Part shown: positions 10,888 to 20,722 of the stretch, in pieces
Numbering within the stretch: the stretch's first letter is position 1
Layout of the letters: every line of letters begins with the position of its first letter
Virus record (IMG/VR): IMGVR_UViG_648276650_000007
Span: 1 to 25,804 of that record
Origin: a virus
Taxonomy: Duplodnaviria > Heunggongvirae > Uroviricota > Caudoviricetes
DNA length: 25,804 nt
Strand: one strand, 5' to 3'
Notes under the pieces: generated by a model
Database searches by the model: none
Seen by the model: only the letters and a program-made list of their open reading frames with translations
What the model was told of the DNA's origin: nothing
Program-made: the position numbers and the translations under genes

Positions 10888-12654
10888 ATGAACACCACAC
10901 TGACACCCGCAGATCTCGATCCCCGTCGGCAGGCCATGCTGCTGTACTTTCAGGGATACCGCGTAGCCCGCATTGCTGAAATGCTGGGCGAGAAAGTTGC
11001 AACCGTTCACAGCTGGAAAAAACGCGACAAGTGGGGTGACTATGGGCCGCTTGATCAGATGCAGCTCACCACCGCCGCACGCTACTGCCAGCTCATTATG
11101 AAGGAGCACAAAGAAGGGAAAGATTTCAAAGAGATTGACCTGCTGGCGCGCCAGTCGGAGCGCCATGCGCGGATCGGCAAGTTTAACAATGGCGGCAACG
11201 AAGCCGACTTAAACCCTAACGTCGCCAACCGCAACAAAGGCCCGCGCCGTCAGCCGGAAAAGAACGTTTTCACCGATGAACAGATTGAGAAGTTGGAAGA
11301 AATCTTCCATTCCTCCATGTTCAACTACCAGCGCCACTGGTGGGAAGCCGGAAAAACCAACCGCATCCGCAACCTGCTGAAGTCACGCCAGATCGGCGCG
11401 ACCTTCTATTTTGCCCGTGAAGCCCTGATTGACGCCCTGCTAACCGGGCGTAACCAGATTTTCCTTTCCGCCAGCAAGGCTCAGGCCCACGTCTTTAAGC
11501 AGTACATCATCGACTTCGCCAAAGAAGTGGAGGTGGAGCTGAAAGGCGATCCGATGGTGCTTCCTAACGGGGCCACGCTGTACTTCCTCGGCACCAATGC
11601 CCGCACGGCCCAGAGTTACCACGGCAACCTGTATCTGGATGAATATTTCTGGATACCGAAATTCCAGGAGCTGCGCAAAGTGGCTTCCGGTATGGCTATT
11701 CACAAAAAATGGCGACAAACCTATTTTTCCACGCCATCCAGCCTGACACACAGTGCTTATCCGTTCTGGTCCGGTGCGCTGTTCAACCGAGGGCGCAGCA
11801 AAGCCGATAAGGTGGACATCGACCTGTCCCACAGCAATCTGGCCCCCGGCCTGCTGTGCGCAGACGGGCAGTACCGCCAGATAGTCACTGTGGAAGATGC
11901 GGTGCGCGGCGGCTGTAACCTGTTCGACCTCGACCAGTTGCGCATGGAGTACAGCCCGGACGAATACCAGAACCTGCTGATGTGTGAGTTCGTGGACGAT
12001 CTCGCGTCTGTGTTCCCACTCAGCGAGCTGCAGGCGTGCATGGTGGACAGTTGGGAAGTCTGGACCGACTTTCATGCACTGGCCCTGCGCCCGTTTGGCT
12101 GGCGCGAAGTGTGGATCGGATATGACCCGGCGAAAGGTACGCAGAACGGCGACAGCGCCGGATGCGTGGTGGTGGCGCCGCCAGCCGTGCCGGGCGGTAA
12201 GTTCCGCATTCTTGAGCGTCACCAGTGGCGCGGAATGGACTTCCGCGCCCAGGCTGACGCCATCAAAAAACTGACCGAACAGTACAACGTGACCTATATC
12301 GGTATCGACTCAACCGGCGTTGGTCACGGGGTTTACGAGAACGTGAAAGCGTTTTTTCCTGCCGTCCGGGAGTTTGTCTACAACCCCAACGTTAAAAACG
12401 CCCTGGTACTCAAGGCCTACGACATTATCAGCCACCGCCGTCTGGAGTTTGACGCCGGACACACCGACATAGCGCAGTCCTTTATGGCAATCCGTCGCGC
12501 CACCACCGCCAGTGGCAACCGCCCGACCTATGAAGCCAGCCGCAGCGAAGAAGCCAGCCACGCCGATCTGGCCTGGGCAACGATGCACGCACTGTTTAAC
12601 GAACCGCTGCAGGGCGAATCCGCCAATACCAGCAATATTGTGGAGATTTTTTGA
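10888..12654 (+). CDS. P: terminase large (ATPase) subunit P
   Basis: 588 aa, the size of P2 gpP; N-terminus MNTTLTPADLDPRRQAMLLYFQGYRVARIAEMLG is P2 P-like; overlaps the portal start by 4 nt. Confidence 0.9.
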   Translation: MNTTLTPADLDPRRQAMLLYFQGYRVARIAEMLGEKVATVHSWKKRDKWGDYGPLDQMQLTTAARYCQLIMKEHKEGKDFKEIDLLARQSERHARIGKFNNGGNEADLNPNVANRNKGPRRQPEKNVFTDEQIEKLEEIFHSSMFNYQRHWWEAGKTNRIRNLLKSRQIGATFYFAREALIDALLTGRNQIFLSASKAQAHVFKQYIIDFAKEVEVELKGDPMVLPNGATLYFLGTNARTAQSYHGNLYLDEYFWIPKFQELRKVASGMAIHKKWRQTYFSTPSSLTHSAYPFWSGALFNRGRSKADKVDIDLSHSNLAPGLLCADGQYRQIVTVEDAVRGGCNLFDLDQLRMEYSPDEYQNLLMCEFVDDLASVFPLSELQACMVDSWEVWTDFHALALRPFGWREVWIGYDPAKGTQNGDSAGCVVVAPPAVPGGKFRILERHQWRGMDFRAQADAIKKLTEQYNVTYIGIDSTGVGHGVYENVKAFFPAVREFVYNPNVKNALVLKAYDIISHRRLEFDAGHTDIAQSFMAIRRATTASGNRPTYEASRSEEASHADLAWATMHALFNEPLQGESANTSNIVEIF

Positions 12655-13688
12655 TGGGAAAGAGTAAGAAGAACCGCGCTGCGGCGACGAAACAGATCCA
12701 GCTTAAAAGTCAAACTACAGCCGAAGCATTCAGCTTCGGCGATCCCGTTCCTGTTCTGGACCGCCGAGAACTGCTGGATTATGTGGAATGCGTACAGATG
12801 GACCGTTGGTATGAGCCGCCCGTCAGCTTTGACGGACTGGCGCGCACCTTCCGCGCCGCCGTGCATCACAGTTCCCCGATTGCAGTAAAGTGCAACATTC
12901 TGACCAGTACCTATATCCCTCATCCGCTGCTCAGCCAGCAGGCTTTTTCGCGTTTTGTGCAGGACTATCTGGTATTTGGTAACGCCTACCTGGAGAAACG
13001 CACGAACCGATTCGGTGAAGTTATCGCTATTGAGCCTGCGCTTGCAAAATACACCCGACGCGGATTAGACCTGGATACCTACTGGTTTGTGCAATACGGT
13101 ATGACAACCCTGCCGTATCAGTTCACGAAAGGCAGCATTTTTCATCTGATGGAACCGGACATCAACCAGGAGATCTACGGCCTGCCCGGTTATCTTTCTG
13201 CCATTCCGTCAGCCCTGCTCAACGAGTCCGCCACGCTGTTCCGCCGCAAGTATTACATTAACGGTAGCCATGCAGGCTTCATCATGTATATGACCGATGC
13301 CGCGCAGAACCAGGAAGATGTGAACAACCTCCGCAACGCAATGAAAAGCGCCAAAGGCCCTGGCAACTTCCGCAATCTGTTTATGTACTCGCCTAACGGC
13401 AAAAAGGACGGACTTCAGATTATCCCGTTGTCAGAGGTCGCAGCGAAGGATGAGTTTTTGAATATCAAGAACGTGAGTCGGGATGACATGATGGCAGCAC
13501 ATCGTGTGCCGCCGCAAATGATGGGGATTATGCCGAGTAATGTTGGGGGTTTTGGGGATGTGGAGAAAGCCAGCCGCGTCTTTGTTCGCAACGAGTTGAT
13601 ACCTCTGCAGAAGCGCCTTCAGGAATTGAACGACTGGCTTGGAGAAGAAGTCATGCGTTTTGAAGATTATAATTTAGGTATTGAATGA
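12651..13688 (+). CDS. Q: portal protein Q
   Basis: 345 aa, the size of P2 gpQ; co-directional and coupled with P, as in the P2 P-Q operon. Confidence 0.9.
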   Translation: MMGKSKKNRAAATKQIQLKSQTTAEAFSFGDPVPVLDRRELLDYVECVQMDRWYEPPVSFDGLARTFRAAVHHSSPIAVKCNILTSTYIPHPLLSQQAFSRFVQDYLVFGNAYLEKRTNRFGEVIAIEPALAKYTRRGLDLDTYWFVQYGMTTLPYQFTKGSIFHLMEPDINQEIYGLPGYLSAIPSALLNESATLFRRKYYINGSHAGFIMYMTDAAQNQEDVNNLRNAMKSAKGPGNFRNLFMYSPNGKKDGLQIIPLSEVAAKDEFLNIKNVSRDDMMAAHRVPPQMMGIMPSNVGGFGDVEKASRVFVRNELIPLQKRLQELNDWLGEEVMRFEDYNLGIE

Positions 13689-13693
13689 TATTT

Positions 13694-13717
13694 AAAAGCC
13701 TGTACAAACAGGCTTTT
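13694..13717. terminator. intrinsic terminator hairpin between convergent Q and the cargo operon
   Basis: Perfect 10-bp stem AAAAGCCTGT / ACAGGCTTTT with ACAA loop, followed by a T-rich run on the + strand; lies between the Q stop (13688) and the stop of the minus-strand gene at 13758. Confidence 0.6.
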
Positions 13718-13757
13718 ATTCTTTAGTTTAAAATCACCAAGACATGAGCATTAAAAC

Positions 13758-14423
13758 TTAAAGATCCGGATCTACAGGCTCATGATATAGATTTACAGGG
13801 TAATGAATAACTTCATAATTCAGTTGAGTAACTGTGTGAACATGCTGGCTATAAAAAACCAATGGATTTTTTTGACAAGGAGTAATCGTTATAGATTTAC
13901 AGGCATGAATTCTTGGTGCGAATTTATCTAAATGCGCCTTCCAGTTGCTCATCATTTCATTACATTTTCTATTACGAGTATAGATAATCAATCCACCACT
14001 TGCGCTGTCTACGGTCCCTGTACTATATCGTTCAGTGAGTTGAGCATACCCTTTAAATAAATAACTATATGAAGATGTATGTTTTTTGGCTTCGCCATGC
14101 CAAATATAATCCTTTAGTTTTATTGTAATATCACAATGTCCGCGCTGATTATTTTCATGAAATGCTTCAATGTCCATATCTTTATTTTTGATATTGGCCA
14201 ATAAAATTAAAGTAAGCTGATCTTCTGTTAAATCGAAGTTTAACTTATTTGAATTCTCTTCTATTTCCTTTACAGCAGAATCAAGTTCAATCCTGACAAA
14301 TTGTTTGAAATTATCGTACGATTGAAGTGCAAATCTAACACGAGTAATAGAAGCATTAATACGCTGAAGAAAAATATCATTATCAATATCAGCCAAACTC
14401 ATTGCTGCAGACATTTTTAACAT
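13758..14423 (-). CDS. hypothetical protein, cargo gene 3 of 3; possible PD-(D/E)xK-type nuclease
   Basis: 221 aa, AT-rich codon usage unlike the flanking phage genes. Start ATG overlaps the stop of gene 2 (TGATG). Contains EAFHE...GHCDITIKLKDYIWHGEAKK, compatible with an E...D...ExK nuclease core; this is inference from motif spacing only. Confidence 0.65.
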   Translation of the reverse strand: MLKMSAAMSLADIDNDIFLQRINASITRVRFALQSYDNFKQFVRIELDSAVKEIEENSNKLNFDLTEDQLTLILLANIKNKDMDIEAFHENNQRGHCDITIKLKDYIWHGEAKKHTSSYSYLFKGYAQLTERYSTGTVDSASGGLIIYTRNRKCNEMMSNWKAHLDKFAPRIHACKSITITPCQKNPLVFYSQHVHTVTQLNYEVIHYPVNLYHEPVDPDL

Positions 14424-14869
14424 CAGATAATATCCTTTGATTTAGATTCATCTAATGTAAAAAAAGGAAATACGAATGACTTATAGTCATACATAAGCTC
14501 CCCTGTAAATGGGTTTGCTAAAGATTGACTGATTTCCGCCTCAATAACTTCCTCTATTTCAAGTTCTACAGGGTCATGAAAATCATCAATGAACCAATAA
14601 TTGAGTTTTAAAAAATCAACCTTTGGGCTACAAAGAATTTGTATGGCCGGATAGATAACCTGCTCATACGTTTCTGGCTGTAAAACCTTATTATAACCAC
14701 CAGCTATATTAAATAAATCCTTATAACTTAAAGCTATATTTGATGATTTTTTAGCCCTTGCCTCGATTTCATCGTACAAATAGCAAGCTAACGCCCCAAT
14801 TTCAGGGCGTTCTGCACACATTTCTTTGATGATCTTGGGCATATCACCATCCTTCATTGCTGACTCCAA
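14423..14869 (-). CDS. hypothetical protein, cargo gene 2 of 3 (small acidic protein)
   Basis: 148 aa; start is directly adjacent to the gene 1 stop; acidic C-terminal half (DDFHDPVELEIEEVIEAEISQ); no motif I recognise. Confidence 0.6.
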   Translation of the reverse strand: MESAMKDGDMPKIIKEMCAERPEIGALACYLYDEIEARAKKSSNIALSYKDLFNIAGGYNKVLQPETYEQVIYPAIQILCSPKVDFLKLNYWFIDDFHDPVELEIEEVIEAEISQSLANPFTGELMYDYKSFVFPFFTLDESKSKDII

Positions 14870-15976
14870 TTATAATATCAGCTTTGTGAGGGTTTCGAAA
14901 TCATCTTTGGATATACATTTACTTAATATAGCATAGTTAACAGGAGAGCAACTACTCCCTCCTAGATGCCTGCGGAGTGTTCCCGGAATGATAAGCTCTA
15001 CGTTATCCGCTAATTGCAGTTTTGGATTATTTCTATCAACTCTAATTCCAATACGATACAAACCAATACTGCCTACTGCTTTGATGCCTTCCTTATTAAA
15101 CAAATCATCACGTAAGTCTTTAGTGGCCACATTTTTCTTTTCTTTATGCGTAGTCCCCTCATTCGTCAAAAATGACAAATCAAAGACTTTATAGCTTAAT
15201 TTTGAATAAGGCAATGAATTTTGTTTGAAAATTGGCTCAATTAACGGATAAAAATCTTTTTCCGATGATTTAAATTCATAACCGACATGATTATACAATT
15301 CACGAATAATGTTACTCTTTGCAAAAGTAACATTATCACCAATAATATTACCATTAGTATCTACCAAAACATGAATTTTATTAGTAACAGAGTCTAATAT
15401 ACAGACATCAAAACATTGTCGCTTTTCTTTTCGCTTTGCAATAATTTCATCAAACTGCTTGTATTGCGCAAGTGCTGACGGGGGAATTTTTTCTCTTACA
15501 ACTAATTCTCTGACAGATGAAAAAACAAGTATTGACTGGGTGTTTTGAATAGAATAATTAACAAGTTCAGGTTGATTTTTTACAGCATTTTGCAATTGGA
15601 CATCATCAAGGATCGAATCAACCAATAATGATGGTTGATTCATCAAATTCCATTGGAAACTAAATCTGTCATTTAGTGTTTTAATTACACTATTATCTAC
15701 AGTCAAACTAAATATTGCTTTTTCACCATAAACGACCTGACCCAAAATTAGGTCATTTACGTTTGCCATAATGCCATCAAACTTTTGCCTATCTTTACTT
15801 TTAAGATCAATGAGGCTTTCTAGTATTTTTTCGTTTGTTGCTTCACGCCCCCTACCTGTTGGCAGCCCTAAAGACGCAATAATTGGCCTTGCAACGTTCC
15901 ATGTGAAACGTTCAGTTAAGGTCAAGATCGACTTTAACTCAGACTCAGAAAGCACTACTGGGACACTACCTGTCAT
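14870..15976 (-). CDS. hypothetical protein, cargo gene 1 of 3
   Basis: ORF 14870..15985 begins with GTG; the in-frame ATG at 15976 (MTGSVPVV...) is preceded by an AGGTG Shine-Dalgarno-like sequence. ~368 aa; no Walker A or other motif recognised by eye. Confidence 0.65.
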   Translation of the reverse strand: MTGSVPVVLSESELKSILTLTERFTWNVARPIIASLGLPTGRGREATNEKILESLIDLKSKDRQKFDGIMANVNDLILGQVVYGEKAIFSLTVDNSVIKTLNDRFSFQWNLMNQPSLLVDSILDDVQLQNAVKNQPELVNYSIQNTQSILVFSSVRELVVREKIPPSALAQYKQFDEIIAKRKEKRQCFDVCILDSVTNKIHVLVDTNGNIIGDNVTFAKSNIIRELYNHVGYEFKSSEKDFYPLIEPIFKQNSLPYSKLSYKVFDLSFLTNEGTTHKEKKNVATKDLRDDLFNKEGIKAVGSIGLYRIGIRVDRNNPKLQLADNVELIIPGTLRRHLGGSSCSPVNYAILSKCISKDDFETLTKLIL

Positions 15977-16125: not shown

Positions 16126-16139
16126 CGAGCGCGCGCTCG
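16126..16139. repeat. perfect 14-bp GC-rich palindrome CGAGCGCGCGCTCG
   Basis: Read directly from the sequence; lies in the non-coding GC-rich island between the AT-rich cargo operon and the lipoprotein genes, abutting the cos-like motif. Confidence 0.85.
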
Positions 16140-16154
16140 TATCCCCGCCACGCC
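16136..16154 (-). other. candidate cos (cohesive end) site
   Basis: Minus strand reads GGCGTGGCGGGGATACGAG. The first 13 nt match the 19-nt cohesive end I recall for phage 186 (GGCGTGGCGGGGAAAGCAT) and 12 of 13 match P2 (GGCGAGGCGGGGAAAGCAC). Orientation is correct relative to Q (5' end of the motif points toward Q). Depends on my memory of the cos sequences. Confidence 0.3.
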
Positions 16155-16634
16155 TGCCCGCTTTATGTAGTAGTTTTCATGCACCTGCATGACATGAGCA
16201 AAAGCCCGCCAGTTCTGGCATGTCTTAGCCAAACCGATCCTCAAACGATCATGCGAACTCATGCAGCATAGACATGCATGACATGAAAATCGGTCAAACC
16301 TTGAAACCAGTCATAAATATGAGCCAGCTTAATACACACTAAATAGCTGCGTCTAATACTGCTACACCTGCCGTTTACTGACATGTGGCATGTCGCGTAA
16401 GGACAACATACTGTAGGCCAGATACAGCAGGATCAGGCGAAGAAAACGGCCCCACGCCTTACCCAGCAAGAGCCAAGGGCCAAGGGCTAACCGAAAGTGG
16501 AACATTATTCCGCGCAGTTATTTAGTGTCAGCTCTTTTGAGCTAAAATCAAGTTTCAACATGAGGGTCTGTGCAGGCTTTCTCATCCCGCTAATTTATAC
16601 AGCACACCTATATGGCTATGAGTTTGTCATGCCC

Positions 16635-16667
16635 GCTAATCCTGTTAGGATTAGCCTTGTTTTTTTA
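16635..16667 (+). terminator. intrinsic-terminator-like hairpin 17 nt upstream of the lipoprotein start
   Basis: 8-bp stem GCTAATCC / GGATTAGC, loop TGTTA, followed by CTTGTTTTTTT. Confidence 0.5.
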
Positions 16668-16683
16668 CGATTGGGATAGGGAT

Positions 16684-17490
16684 ATGAAGAAATTAACTGG
16701 CGTAATTGCTTTTGCTCTGCTGCTTACTGCTTGTGACAAACCGAAGATCGATGCATCAAGCGATCAGTCGATGAAAGAGTCCATTCAAAAAGTAAGAGAG
16801 TCCTTACCTGCAGATAAAAAAGCTCAGTTTGATGATGCAGTTAAAGTCGTTGCCTTTAGCCAAATCAACATGAGAGAGCTAATGCAGGCTGGAACGTCTT
16901 CTGGGGACGTCTACGAAACAAAAATTAAGTCAGCGTTGGAAGGTAAAACTGGTGATGAGGTTATAAATTACGCACAAACTATTCGCCTTGAGCGTGAGAA
17001 GAGAGAGAAAGAACAGGCTCTGCAAGAAATAAAAGAACTGGAAGCCAAACAAACCTCTGCAACACAGGCTGCGGAAAAAATGAAAGCCTTCAAGGTCGAA
17101 CGTTCCCGTTTTTATTTCCAGAAAGAGGATTACGGCAATGATCAGCCAATTCTGGATATTAGCGTTGAAAACGGAACAGACAAAGCGGTTGCCAGAGTAT
17201 TCTTCAAAGGAGTTATTGCCAGCCCAGGAAGAAGCGTCCCTTGGTTCTCTGACGTCTTCAACTATAAAATTTCTGGAGGTCTGGAACCAGGTGAGAAAGC
17301 CAACTGGAAATTAGCCCCTAATAGATACTCTGATTGGGGAAAACTTAAAGTTCCGGCTGATGCTATATTTACCGTCACAGTCATTGGCCTTGAAGACGCA
17401 GATGGGAAATCGATCTATGGTGACGCCGAGTTTTCAGAACGCGATGCTGACAGACTGAATCAACTTAGAGATAAGTACCTTTCTAAATAA
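16684..17490 (+). CDS. hypothetical lipoprotein
   Basis: ORF 16612..17490; start placed at Met25 (MKKLTGVIAFALLLTACDKPK) because of the signal peptide with lipobox LLTAC and the hairpin covering the upstream part; ~268 aa mature protein with a Lys/Glu-rich coiled-coil-like middle. Confidence 0.7.
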   Translation: MKKLTGVIAFALLLTACDKPKIDASSDQSMKESIQKVRESLPADKKAQFDDAVKVVAFSQINMRELMQAGTSSGDVYETKIKSALEGKTGDEVINYAQTIRLEREKREKEQALQEIKELEAKQTSATQAAEKMKAFKVERSRFYFQKEDYGNDQPILDISVENGTDKAVARVFFKGVIASPGRSVPWFSDVFNYKISGGLEPGEKANWKLAPNRYSDWGKLKVPADAIFTVTVIGLEDADGKSIYGDAEFSERDADRLNQLRDKYLSK

Positions 17491-17598: not shown

Positions 17599-17898
17599 AT
17601 GAAACGTATAACTTTCTCCTTTACGTTAGTAGCAATCATCATAGCCTTAGCTGGATGTGCTTTGCCAGATAAAGACGGCGACTTCGGAGCTTATGTTCAT
17701 GCCTGTCAGCAATATGCATACGGAAAATCCTATGCCTTTGAGAATAGAGACTTCGCGTATAAGGTCTGTAAGGACGCGGCGAAACTGTGGAGTGACGAAG
17801 TTCCTGGCTATATCATCAGGCAAATTCAACTACATCCTGAAATACCCAGCGAAGAAATTAAATATGCAGCCATGGCCGGCTCTTTGGGGAACAACTAA
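17599..17898 (+). CDS. hypothetical small lipoprotein
   Basis: 99 aa; signal peptide with lipobox IALAGC; co-directional with the preceding lipoprotein gene. Confidence 0.6.
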   Translation: MKRITFSFTLVAIIIALAGCALPDKDGDFGAYVHACQQYAYGKSYAFENRDFAYKVCKDAAKLWSDEVPGYIIRQIQLHPEIPSEEIKYAAMAGSLGNN

Positions 17899-18307: not shown

Positions 18308-20722
18308 TTAATACATGTTCCGCCACTTATCATCTTCCTGCAAACGCTGGTTCCGATAGAAGATACGCAGGCCTGCTCCTGACGGAATACTGCCACCGCA
18401 AAGGAGCAAATCGACCTCTTTCTCGCTGCCATCAAATCCTCTGGACTTCAGTTCATAGACGAGCTGCTGACGCTGATACTCTGTAATTCGCTGTTTGTAG
18501 TCTTTACGCCGTTTCGGTTTAACCAGGCGCAATCTTGCTGCCAGTTCCCGGCGCTCTTTTTTGCTCATACTGTGCAGGTAATCGTGCAATTCCTTGTCAT
18601 CCATGCAGGTAATGTCCGTTCTGGTATCCCCATCTGCTGATTCATCTTTCTCATGTTGGTTCAAATTTTCAGCAAGGGGACAGTTATTGCCACGAGTCCA
18701 AGGGGCGCAAGCGCCCTGGTCGGCTGCCGCCTCCTGAACGTCAACGGCCTTACGAACCATTTTCCACTTCACTGCATGAGTGCAGATCTTGCCCTCTGCA
18801 ATGGGTGACCAGATGCCATAAATACGAATACCGTGATCGCCATAGGCGGTTGGCTCTTCGTTGATTTCATAAGCGGTTCTGATGAGGTGATATTTGCGGG
18901 GAACCAGTACGCCGCCCTGCTTCATGATGTAGGTGGCAAAACAACCAGCATCAGCAGCAGCCAGAATGGCATCAAGACGCGGGTTATCCAGTACCGGCGC
19001 ACCTGCTTTTTTGTCACCCTGTTGCCTTGCCGCCTGACCAGCCAGCAAGCGAAGTTCACGGTAAGCCTGACGTCCCGGAATACCAAAGAAGCGGAATTGC
19101 TGAACACGATGCAGAGACGCCCAGGCATTAACGTATTCAGCGTTATCACGCAGGGATTTACCCGTTTCCTTGCTGATCTCGCCAGCCAGACCACGCCCGT
19201 CAATGTTCTTACTGATGTATTTCGCGATGTAGCTTGTCGGCGTTCCTTTGCGCGGGTTTATCAGCTCAGATTTAAAGCGTGGACCAGTGTTATTACCCAG
19301 TTCCTCGCGGTCTTCACGGATGGCAAACTTACGCAACAATGCAGTAATGGCGCGGCGGTCTTTTTTGCGCATGAAACACAACAGGTGCCAGTGAACTGTA
19401 CCGTCATGATGCGGCTCAGCCACCCGCACGCCATACCAGCGCAACCCGGCTTTGTGTATCGCCTTACGAAATGCAGCAAACATGCCGACCAGATAATCGC
19501 TGCTTTGTCTTACCGTCGCATTTGTCCAGGTTGGGTTTGGTCTGCCGTTATTGAGCGTGGAATGGAAACGTGACGGACAGGTAATGGTGTAGAAAACGGC
19601 GCAGTCACCGCGCATTTCCGCGATAAGCTCCAGACCTTTAACACAGGCCATCATCTCATTGCGGCGGTGCGCCGGGTTGCTGCTGCTGGCGTTTACCACG
19701 TCTTCCATATCCAGCGTGTCGCCCTCTTCGTTCACCAGTTCATGAGAACGGAAAAACTCCAGTGACTTGCGGCGCTGCTCACGTTTATGCATCACGGCTT
19801 CATAGCTGACATAGGGAGATGCTTTTTTGCTGACCAGGCAGACAGCACGCAACTGCTCTTCCCGCCATTCGCAACGCATTTTCCATAATTTCCGGTACCA
19901 CCAGTCGGCGCACAACATACGCGCCAGCGAACCCGGAATGAGTTCATAGGGCACGGGTTTACGGCGGTTTCTTTTCCGACGGAGTTGCTCAAACGCAGGC
20001 GGGATGACATCCAGACGCAGGGTTTCCGCTGCCACCTTTTCCCATGTCTTGCGGATTTCTTCTGGCTTAACGTCATCGGTGGCATACAAATCACCACAAG
20101 CTGCATCAAGGCACATGCTCATATGCGCAGCGACAAGGGTAGACAGGCGTTTCACCTGATCCTGACTCATTTCAGGCAGAATCAGCAGGCCGTCCAGCCC
20201 TACATGGCTTGCCATAAAACGAAAAGATGCAGATAGCTGGCTGTCGCGTACATGCTCCAGTCGTTCCAGACATGGCTTAATCGTCTCACGTAAATAGCGG
20301 GAATAAGCCTTTGGCCTGCCCAAGCTGCTGAAGTATTCAATACGTTGCATCAGCGGCTTGCTGATATGGGAGGGCTGGGCGCTGACGTCTGCCAGAATGA
20401 CCATGTCCGGGTTAAAACGCTGCTGCTCATGCGCCAACTTTGCCCGGCTAATGAGCTTATCCTGCTCTATTTCGCGTTGGACAGGATCACGGGATTCATT
20501 AAAGAAATAACGCTCCCAGACCTGATCACTCAGTGCCTCGCGGCGCAGTTGTTCCTGCTCGTTATCGGCAGCGTACAGAGTGATCAGGTTTGAAAGCGCA
20601 GAAACCGGCGCAACTTCCGCCGGGTCCAGATAAGGGTTAATGGCCTTTTTCGGGCTGTTCCATGAGAACGATGCGGCAGCCTCGTTAAAGCCGCAGCAGT
20701 TGCTCATATCGGCATGGCTCAT
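18308..20722 (-). CDS. A: replication initiation endonuclease (P2 A / rolling-circle HUH family)
   Basis: 804 aa; HUH-like motif TVHWHLLCF and two-tyrosine motif [11 protein letters not shown]; size and position match P2 gene A; ATGA overlap with the upstream methylase stop. Confidence 0.9.

Follow-up and report, generated by a model that had tools for sequence, protein, structure and literature searches.

A three-gene cassette at the cos-proximal hotspot of a P2-like prophage encodes a predicted PD-(D/E)xK nuclease and is a candidate immune module

What do three anonymous genes beside the portal gene of a P2-like prophage do, and does the last of them encode a nuclease? We investigated this question in the IMG/VR virus record IMGVR_UViG_648276650_000007, positions 1 to 25,804 of which make up the whole stretch of DNA that was analysed (25,804 nucleotides; hereafter, the window). 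The window is a P2/186-like prophage with genes for capsid, scaffold, terminase (10888–12654), portal protein gpQ (12651–13688), gpA replication endonuclease (18308–20722), CI/CII/Fil, and integrase. Three minus-strand genes, here called A, B, and C, lie between gpQ and a cos-like sequence (Table 1). A preliminary description, made from the letters of the sequence, had read a possible PD-(D/E)xK nuclease core in gene C and proposed its product as the effector of the cassette. We consider it probable, at roughly 0.6, that A-B-C is an accessory immune module in which A would sense DNA, B would tether or restrain C, and C would cut DNA by means of residues E67, D98, E111, and K113.

The open reading frame (ORF) of gene C occupies exactly the interval given in Table 1 and begins with an ATG start codon; the plus-strand translation of this interval is riddled with stops. 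The ORF and peptide on which the preliminary description was based are real, as the 221-aa minus-strand product contains GHCDITIKLKDYIWHGEAKK, and the quoted peptide, EAFHENNQRGHCDITIKLKDYIWHGEAKK, corresponds to residues 86–114. The protein is 100% identical to that of a locus in the chromosome of Escherichia coli ECONIH4 and in a further three complete genomes; its annotation there is "hypothetical protein".

Structure prediction, named beforehand as a test on which the nuclease claim could fail, gave a restriction-type core and no non-nuclease fold. The AlphaFold2 model of C, built from a 36-sequence alignment, was confident (predicted local distance difference test, pLDDT, of 89.6; predicted template modelling score, pTM, of 0.85). 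An N-terminal two-helix extension, a hairpin at residues 10–56, precedes a core composed of a helix (67–76), strands at 85–88, 99–103, and 106–115, a helix (119–133), a strand (142–149), a helix (154–171), and further strands. This alpha-beta-beta-beta-alpha-beta topology is that of the canonical restriction-endonuclease core. In the model, E67 opens the first core helix (alpha1), D98 stands directly before or at the start of strand 99–103 (beta2), and E111 and K113 fall inside strand 106–115 (beta3). The closest folds to C were true restriction enzymes and McrC, and most of the best Foldseek matches, all of them non-significant, were PD-(D/E)xK nucleases (McrC, R2 endonuclease, Bax1, N.BspD6I, and Can2).

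The conservation of these residues was examined in the wider family. HMMER, run exhaustively against 1.84 billion cluster representatives (clusters at 50% identity), returned 567 relatives of C at E ≤ 1e-3, 445 of them at E ≤ 1e-10, which points to a family of at least 567 such clusters. Residues were counted in 148 of the best 150 relatives. D98, E111, K113, G95, G125, and Y133 were each present in all 148, E67 in 146 (the other two having gaps), and Q128 and R132 in 147 each. The preliminary description had relied on the spacing of an acidic residue, an Asp, and an E-A-K triplet. The Asp and the triplet hold, as D98, E111, and K113 are invariant, whereas the first acidic residue proved to be E67, outside the quoted peptide; within that peptide, E90 is D or E in 131 of the 148 relatives and E86 is not conserved. 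The family diverges to ~30% identity yet keeps E67, D98, E111, and K113, and because this catalytic set is conserved across the family, C is predicted to be catalytically active and not a dead scaffold. The modelled core and the conserved residues together support the claimed fold, and support placing C in a nuclease family of the PD-(D/E)xK superfamily that no database names.

The bare motif does not lead this far. A D-x(8-20)-[DE]-x-K pattern was present in 1389 of 2000 shuffles of C (69%). The six frames of the window contain 36 stop-to-stop frames of 150 codons or more, and 14 of these carry the pattern too. The original caution that such motifs are degenerate, and that this was pattern reading only, was borne out, since the pattern by itself does no better than chance. 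The motif rises above chance because D98, E111, and K113 are invariant in the family and occupy the positions that the fold demands.

Gene C closes an A-B-C operon. The stop codon of B overlaps the start codon of C (TGATG), coupling the two genes translationally, and the gap between A and B is 10 nt and includes GGAG. To follow this arrangement, hidden Markov models of A, B, and C were built and all ORFs of the fetched loci were scored. The A-B-C order was found in 19/19 IMG/VR loci. In a metagenome census, 80 loci were fetched by the C pattern and 64 had enough upstream DNA to assess; 56 of these were A-B-C, four were NACHT-HEAT-C fusions, in three a larger ORF ended C-terminally in a B domain and C came next, and one was unclear. 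The order is kept at 21–40% identity in Pantoea, Bradyrhizobium, and metagenomes, and on distant metagenomic contigs C is 32–35% identical, A 22% (E = 3e-23), and B 26–31%. In Pantoea sp. alder81, the homologues stand in a non-P2 setting with ArdC-like and integrase genes; other A-B-C homologues occur in Bradyrhizobium sp. WSM1417 and in one island where a WYL regulator and a pyocin S gene are also present. What had been described as the third gene of a cassette is, more precisely, the terminal gene of a conserved operon. Two side observations concern individual loci. Gene A is split in two frames in Klebsiella sp. I138 (L002; 151 + 241 aa) and in locus L044 (150 + 205 aa), which suggests a frameshift or a decaying copy. 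In the metagenomic locus L079 (3–3169), the C homologue has before it a Ser/Thr protein kinase joined to a periplasmic-binding-protein domain and then a 145-aa ORF unmatched by the B profile; this gene set may be another set of partners for C.

Both B and C are reused outside the operon. The C domain forms the C-terminal module of STAND (signal transduction ATPases with numerous domains) proteins of 712–1198 aa that combine NACHT or NB-ARC with HEAT repeats, with at least 10 examples (among them P0100, P0133, P0149, P0159, P0166, P0167, and P0214, and loci L039 and L053). One NACHT-HEAT-C fusion gene is solitary, with neither A nor B nearby. In sensors that resemble the nucleotide-binding, leucine-rich repeat (NLR) proteins of immunity, the C-terminal place is the one taken by an effector. 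The B domain is likewise found on other proteins. In locus L059 (3–4555) it is appended (residues 1183–1303) to a Type ISP/IIG restriction-modification (RM) enzyme whose N-terminus, the usual place of an Mrr nuclease, is cut by the contig end (ISP_coupler, 1.9e-50; Type_ISP_C, 1.1e-105; PADLOC REase_MTase_IIG, E = 0), and the next gene is C. Locus L069 (4–4606) is an operon with 4-nt overlaps that encodes a Type II methyltransferase, a T5orf172-ResIII helicase with the B domain at its C-terminus, and C. Because the B domain is fused to an RM-type enzyme and to a helicase, each then followed by C, B would appear to be a docking appendage for C. C would act as a trans-acting nuclease subunit of DNA-acting enzymes, and DNA is therefore favoured as its substrate. 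In a further relative (P0205; L014, 984–2054), C is fused to a C-terminal LexA-type Peptidase_S24 domain (E = 3e-25) with A and B still upstream, an arrangement suggestive of a connection with RecA and the signalling of DNA damage, possibly through RecA*-triggered self-cleavage. The earlier proposal that C is the effector of the cassette is supported as a prediction by its terminal place in the operon, its use as a STAND C-terminal module, and its position after RM-type motor proteins that carry the B domain.

Gene B encodes a protein with an isoelectric point (pI) of 4.4 and a net charge of −12. This acidity is conserved, as the pI is <6 in 83 of 85 unique homologues and the median net charge is −10. 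There are no conserved polar residues of catalytic look; the best conserved positions are L75, L83, P116, and F133. These properties fit an adaptor, one that may in addition cover the cleft in which C would bind DNA. The product of gene A, the ORF of which reaches 15985 if extended to a GTG codon, shows structural similarity to the base and centre domains of RdgC. Proteins in the fold group of RexA, RdgC, Iml3, and Chl4 are DNA-binding dimers that bind non-specifically as rings or horseshoes; in the RexAB exclusion system, RexA forms the sensor half (PMC11077077, the lambda RexA crystal structure, where this fold group is defined). A itself is basic (pI 8.47; family median 8.15), and it is this basic pI that supports its proposed role as a non-specific DNA binder; the family conserves R23, K86, R156, K280, and R289. 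Pfam gave no match of A to the RdgC (PF04381) or RexA families, and no NTPase or translocase domain was detected by Pfam in A or B. With neither a Pfam match nor sequence-level similarity, A is better said to work like RdgC and RexA than to be a member of their family.

The fold and invariant residues of C, the conserved operon, the reuse of B and C, and the genomic setting are shown in silico, and we infer a mechanism in which A senses DNA, B docks and inhibits C, the substrate is DNA, and the outcome is an anti-phage phenotype. Basic and of the RdgC/RexA fold, A would bind DNA and sense a phage-specific DNA structure or an intermediate of replication or recombination. The small, acidic B would dock C physically and probably hold it inactive. 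Once activated, C would carry out metal-dependent DNA cleavage by E67, D98, E111, and K113, helped by Q128, R132, and Y133, and this cleavage would either destroy the invader or abort the infection. A more specific version is possible, although we hold it only tentatively: A-B-C would be an undescribed immune system in which an RdgC/RexA-fold clamp, A, senses phage DNA or its intermediates and frees C from an acidic, possibly DNA-mimicking adaptor, B, with B-C serving as a portable plug-in pair and C alone as a NACHT-HEAT effector.

The setting of the cassette is that of mobile cargo. The cos-proximal Q-to-A region is a P2 defence hotspot (Rousset et al. 2022). The GC content of the cassette is 34–35%, compared to 55–60% in the phage backbone. 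The cassette was found in 20 of 5,426 complete E. coli genomes, always adjoining the portal gene, and in two allelic groups that are about 99–100% and about 84–85% identical. Among the 1,247 complete E. coli genomes matching the query (which includes the portal-gene end), no more than 20 have the cassette, which therefore lies outside the phage core. Only A, B, and C make up the cassette, flanked by portal gene Q and the cos region; there is no methyltransferase beside C, and the DNA adenine methylase of the prophage lies beyond gpA as part of the phage backbone.

Outside P2, A-B-C stands divergently beside a complete Gabija system (GajA, 2.6e-296; GajB, 1e-200) in a metagenomic island (L015, 1–5753) and in Bradyrhizobium sp. 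WSM1417 (L115, 4107–10209), where a DUF6538 integrase-like gene lies on the other side. Seven records of Stx1a-converting lambdoid phages carry a divergent A-B-C between antiterminator Q and stx1AB, on the strand opposite stx; in phage Stx1_499 (LC567825; L119, 3475–5582), C is 35% identical. A-B-C is also the main cargo of the 6.1-kb mobilizable Col(Ye4449) plasmid pRGF99-1-6115bp of Klebsiella pneumoniae (NZ_CP075557.1, L118), where it lies beside a RelE/ParE pair; gene A spans the record origin of this plasmid and is missing from its gene table. Searches with C only (tblastn) found homologues in Klebsiella phage KP12, in Acinetobacter and Moraxella phages, and on plasmids of Enterobacter, Leclercia, Pantoea, Rhizobium, Calothrix, Pseudomonas, and Vibrio. 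Placement in hotspots, islands, and mobile elements, a trait of defence systems, was thus seen locus by locus (the P2 Q-A hotspot, Gabija, the WYL regulator, Stx1 phages, and plasmids). Spread over phages, plasmids, and islands, the distribution is as expected of defence or addiction cargo.

Table 1. Features of the A-B-C cassette and its surroundings, with positions numbered along the window.
Feature	Position	Strand	Identifier or basis
Gene C: 221-aa PD-(D/E)xK-fold nuclease, putative effector	13758..14423	minus	WP_016239485.1
Predicted catalytic core of C, D98-ITIKLKDYIWHG-E111-A-K113, across strands beta2 and beta3	14085..14132	minus	translation, conservation, model strands
E67 of C, which opens core helix alpha1; putative metal ligand	14223..14225	minus	conserved in 146/148, the other two being gaps
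Q128-LTE-R132-Y133 motif of C, helix after beta3; family signature	14025..14042	minus	Q 147/148, R 147/148, Y 148/148
Gene B: 144-aa acidic protein, proposed adaptor/inhibitor docking C	14423..14857	minus	WP_001324710.1
Gene A: 368-aa basic protein, RdgC/RexA/Iml3-Chl4-type fold, proposed DNA-binding sensor	14870..15976	minus	WP_000148121.1
cos-like region of P2-like prophage, upstream of the cassette; marks the cos-proximal hotspot	16128..16220		read directly (GCGCGCTCGTATCCCCGCCACGCCTGCCCGC)
Stem-loop with 11-bp stem and T-runs, terminator-like, between converging genes Q (ends 13688) and C (ends 13758)	13693..13718		consensus scan only

Several results weigh against the reading of A-B-C as an immune module with a DNA-cutting effector. 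For C, the best Foldseek match in the PDB had an E-value of 0.017, short of significance. Pfam scans of 35 family members gave at best PDDEXK_9 at E = 0.087 (2/35) and Mrr_cat at E = 0.045 (1/35), sequence and profile searches of the PDB matched no nuclease, and the clustering of E67, D98, E111, and K113 in space is deduced from topology alone. Some PD-(D/E)xK enzymes are RNases, so that the substrate of C may be RNA rather than DNA. For A, hhalign gave its profile a probability of 0.05% against lambda RexA and 0.11% against E. coli RdgC, so that the link is structural only. The nuclease activity, toxicity, and phage protection of the cassette are computational predictions, and the corresponding entry in the survey of Rousset et al. 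2022 (system 91, described below) is not among the constructs that were cloned and tested there (Table S2). Finally, an acidic B coupled to C suits a toxin-antitoxin (TA) pair equally well.

The TA explanation would have C as toxin, B as antitoxin or immunity protein, and A as regulator or chaperone, together acting as an addiction module that stabilises a prophage, plasmid, or island, a role compatible with defence. The small size and strong acidity of B across its family, the translational coupling of B and C, and the occurrence of the cassette on the 6.1-kb mobilizable plasmid beside a RelE/ParE TA pair, as on many other mobile elements, agree with it. However, in the 56 of 64 loci noted above, B and C are kept together with A, a large third gene, which is atypical for TA pairs, and a B domain fused to RM-type motor enzymes is easier to reconcile with a docking adaptor than with a labile antitoxin. 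The fusion of C to NACHT-HEAT sensors without B is, moreover, an architecture typical of immune effectors. On balance we consider the TA explanation unlikely.

We judge with similar doubt a mechanistic sub-variant of the immune module, in which the cassette would be a Type IV-like restriction system without a methylase: A would recognise a modification or structure of foreign DNA and recruit C via B, and C would cut directly without cell death. The resemblance of C to true restriction enzymes and McrC points in this direction, as do the attachment of B-C to an RM enzyme of Type ISP/IIG and to a helicase linked with a methyltransferase, and the lack of a methyltransferase within the window cassette. 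Unlike McrBC or Type ISP enzymes, however, neither A nor B has an NTPase or translocase domain detected by Pfam; the fold class of A (RdgC, RexA) binds DNA non-specifically, and recognition of modified DNA is conjectural.

It is less likely still that the cassette serves the phage itself, by recombination or repair, host-DNA degradation, or counter-defence during P2 lytic growth rather than by immunity of the lysogen. Phages do carry it, its proteins fall in phage protein families (PHROGs 9664, 11490, and 12777), RdgC-type proteins modulate RecA recombination, and one relative fuses C to the LexA-like S24 peptidase domain. These points are set against the rarity of the cassette among query-matching E. 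coli genomes (20 of 1,247), its foreign GC content, and the presence of the same cassette on plasmids, in integrase-bearing islands beside Gabija, and at the moron position of lambdoid phages. Least likely of all is that C is a catalytically dead, nucleic-acid-binding protein, for although inactive members of the PD-(D/E)xK fold exist and C is known from sequence and model alone, E67, D98, E111, and K113 are kept in 146–148 of 148 relatives at ~30% identity, as expected under selection for catalysis.

The surroundings of the cassette in the window were also characterized. The cos-like region differs very little from the cos-proximal sequence with which the pFR109 insert begins (Rousset et al. 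Table S2A), and the window at ~16128–16278 is about 91% identical to other P2-like phages. The canonical P2 cos 19-mer, GGCGAGGCGGGGAAAGCAC, is absent from the window, and the cos-like sequence is a different variant. Because this sequence lies between them, the cassette is on the portal (Q) side of cos, and a DUF6694 gene and a lipoprotein gene are on the gpA side. These two plus-strand genes, a DUF6694 lipoprotein (16612–17490; Pfam E = 4e-22) and a 99-aa lipoprotein-like ORF (17599–17898), form a second hotspot cargo; the DUF6694 gene is intact in the window and split by IS1 in ECONIH4 (L001, 15085–16667). At the other end of the cassette, the stem-loop between genes Q and C looks like a shared bidirectional terminator.

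The three proteins have been listed before, as anonymous entries. They appear in Table S5A of Rousset et al. 2022 and form system 91 of Table S5B, with 36 occurrences and no Pfam domain, and their PHROG families are all of unknown function. A, B, and C had no significant match in Pfam, NCBIfam, or PADLOC, nor did their distant homologues or the 35 and 11 family members that were submitted one by one. In PADLOC-DB 2.0.0, A, B, and C had no match at E ≤ 0.1, and distant homologues had only two marginal matches (E about 0.008) to unrelated models. Searches of the PDB by sequence and profile with A returned no meaningful match. In the full-text literature that was searched and in the DefensePredictor supplements, the RefSeq accessions and peptides were found only in the Table S5 lists of Rousset et al. 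Literature searches on RdgC or RexA with nucleases and defence turned up no account of the A-B-C architecture, although a later name in current DefenseFinder models or in publisher-only supplements is possible.

If the prediction is true, the anonymous system 91 (Rousset et al. 2022) would become a defined three-component nuclease system that spans P2-like and Stx1-converting E. coli prophages, small mobilizable plasmids, and alpha-proteobacterial and environmental islands. The PD-(D/E)xK superfamily would gain a family of at least 567 clusters missed by current annotation resources. Nucleases of this fold are the commonest effector currency of bacterial immunity, and C as an effector is for that reason expected rather than surprising. 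The interest lies instead in the surrounding system, with its RdgC/RexA-fold partner, a portable acidic adaptor that Type ISP-like enzymes also carry, and the reuse of its nuclease by NLR-like proteins. B would be a small acidic domain that recruits a nuclease in trans to diverse sensors and motors, a reusable design principle and a new adaptor domain. A would provide the second case, after lambda RexA, of an RdgC fold in phage exclusion, could help explain what RexA-type proteins sense, and would give the RexA fold a second output through a soluble effector.

The cassette was also compared with known systems. Rst_3HP ("hp + hp + hp"), which protects against P1 (Rousset et al. 2022), resembles it in hotspot, in gene count, and in that all three proteins lack Pfam domains. 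Considered as a possible identity of the cassette, it was rejected: the published pFR109 proteins, compared by reading, are unlike those of the cassette, which has its own separate entry as system 91. The BamHI-like Type IIP enzymes (OkrAI, BamHI, BstYI, and BglII) are only 6–9% identical to C and were not matched in sequence or profile searches. C differs from them in having no adjacent cognate methyltransferase in the window, in not standing alone but being coupled to A and B, and in its two-helix extension (10–56) and family-specific Q-x3-R-Y motif. The defence nucleases of the same fold, namely McrC (McrBC), HamA (Hachiman), Can2/Card1, and NucC, have partners different from those of C; the window cassette contains no GTPase, helicase, or CARF/SAVED domain, and none of the PADLOC models of these systems matches A, B, or C. 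Type ISP/IIG enzymes of the LlaGI/LlaBIII type also differ, since the window cassette lacks a helicase, a methyltransferase, and a target-recognition domain and has the RdgC-fold A as the upstream partner. By fold, the closest known relatives of A are lambda RexAB and the E. coli RdgC fold group, but the membrane partner RexB is not found beside A, whose partners are the soluble, acidic B and the nuclease C. Lastly, the antiviral STAND/NLR-like proteins (Avs, bNACHT, and the Aravind-type NACHT-HEAT proteins) bear the C domain as their C-terminal module in fusions, which PADLOC matches only via the HEAT repeats, whereas the C of the window is a stand-alone protein without an NTPase, encoded in an operon with A and B.

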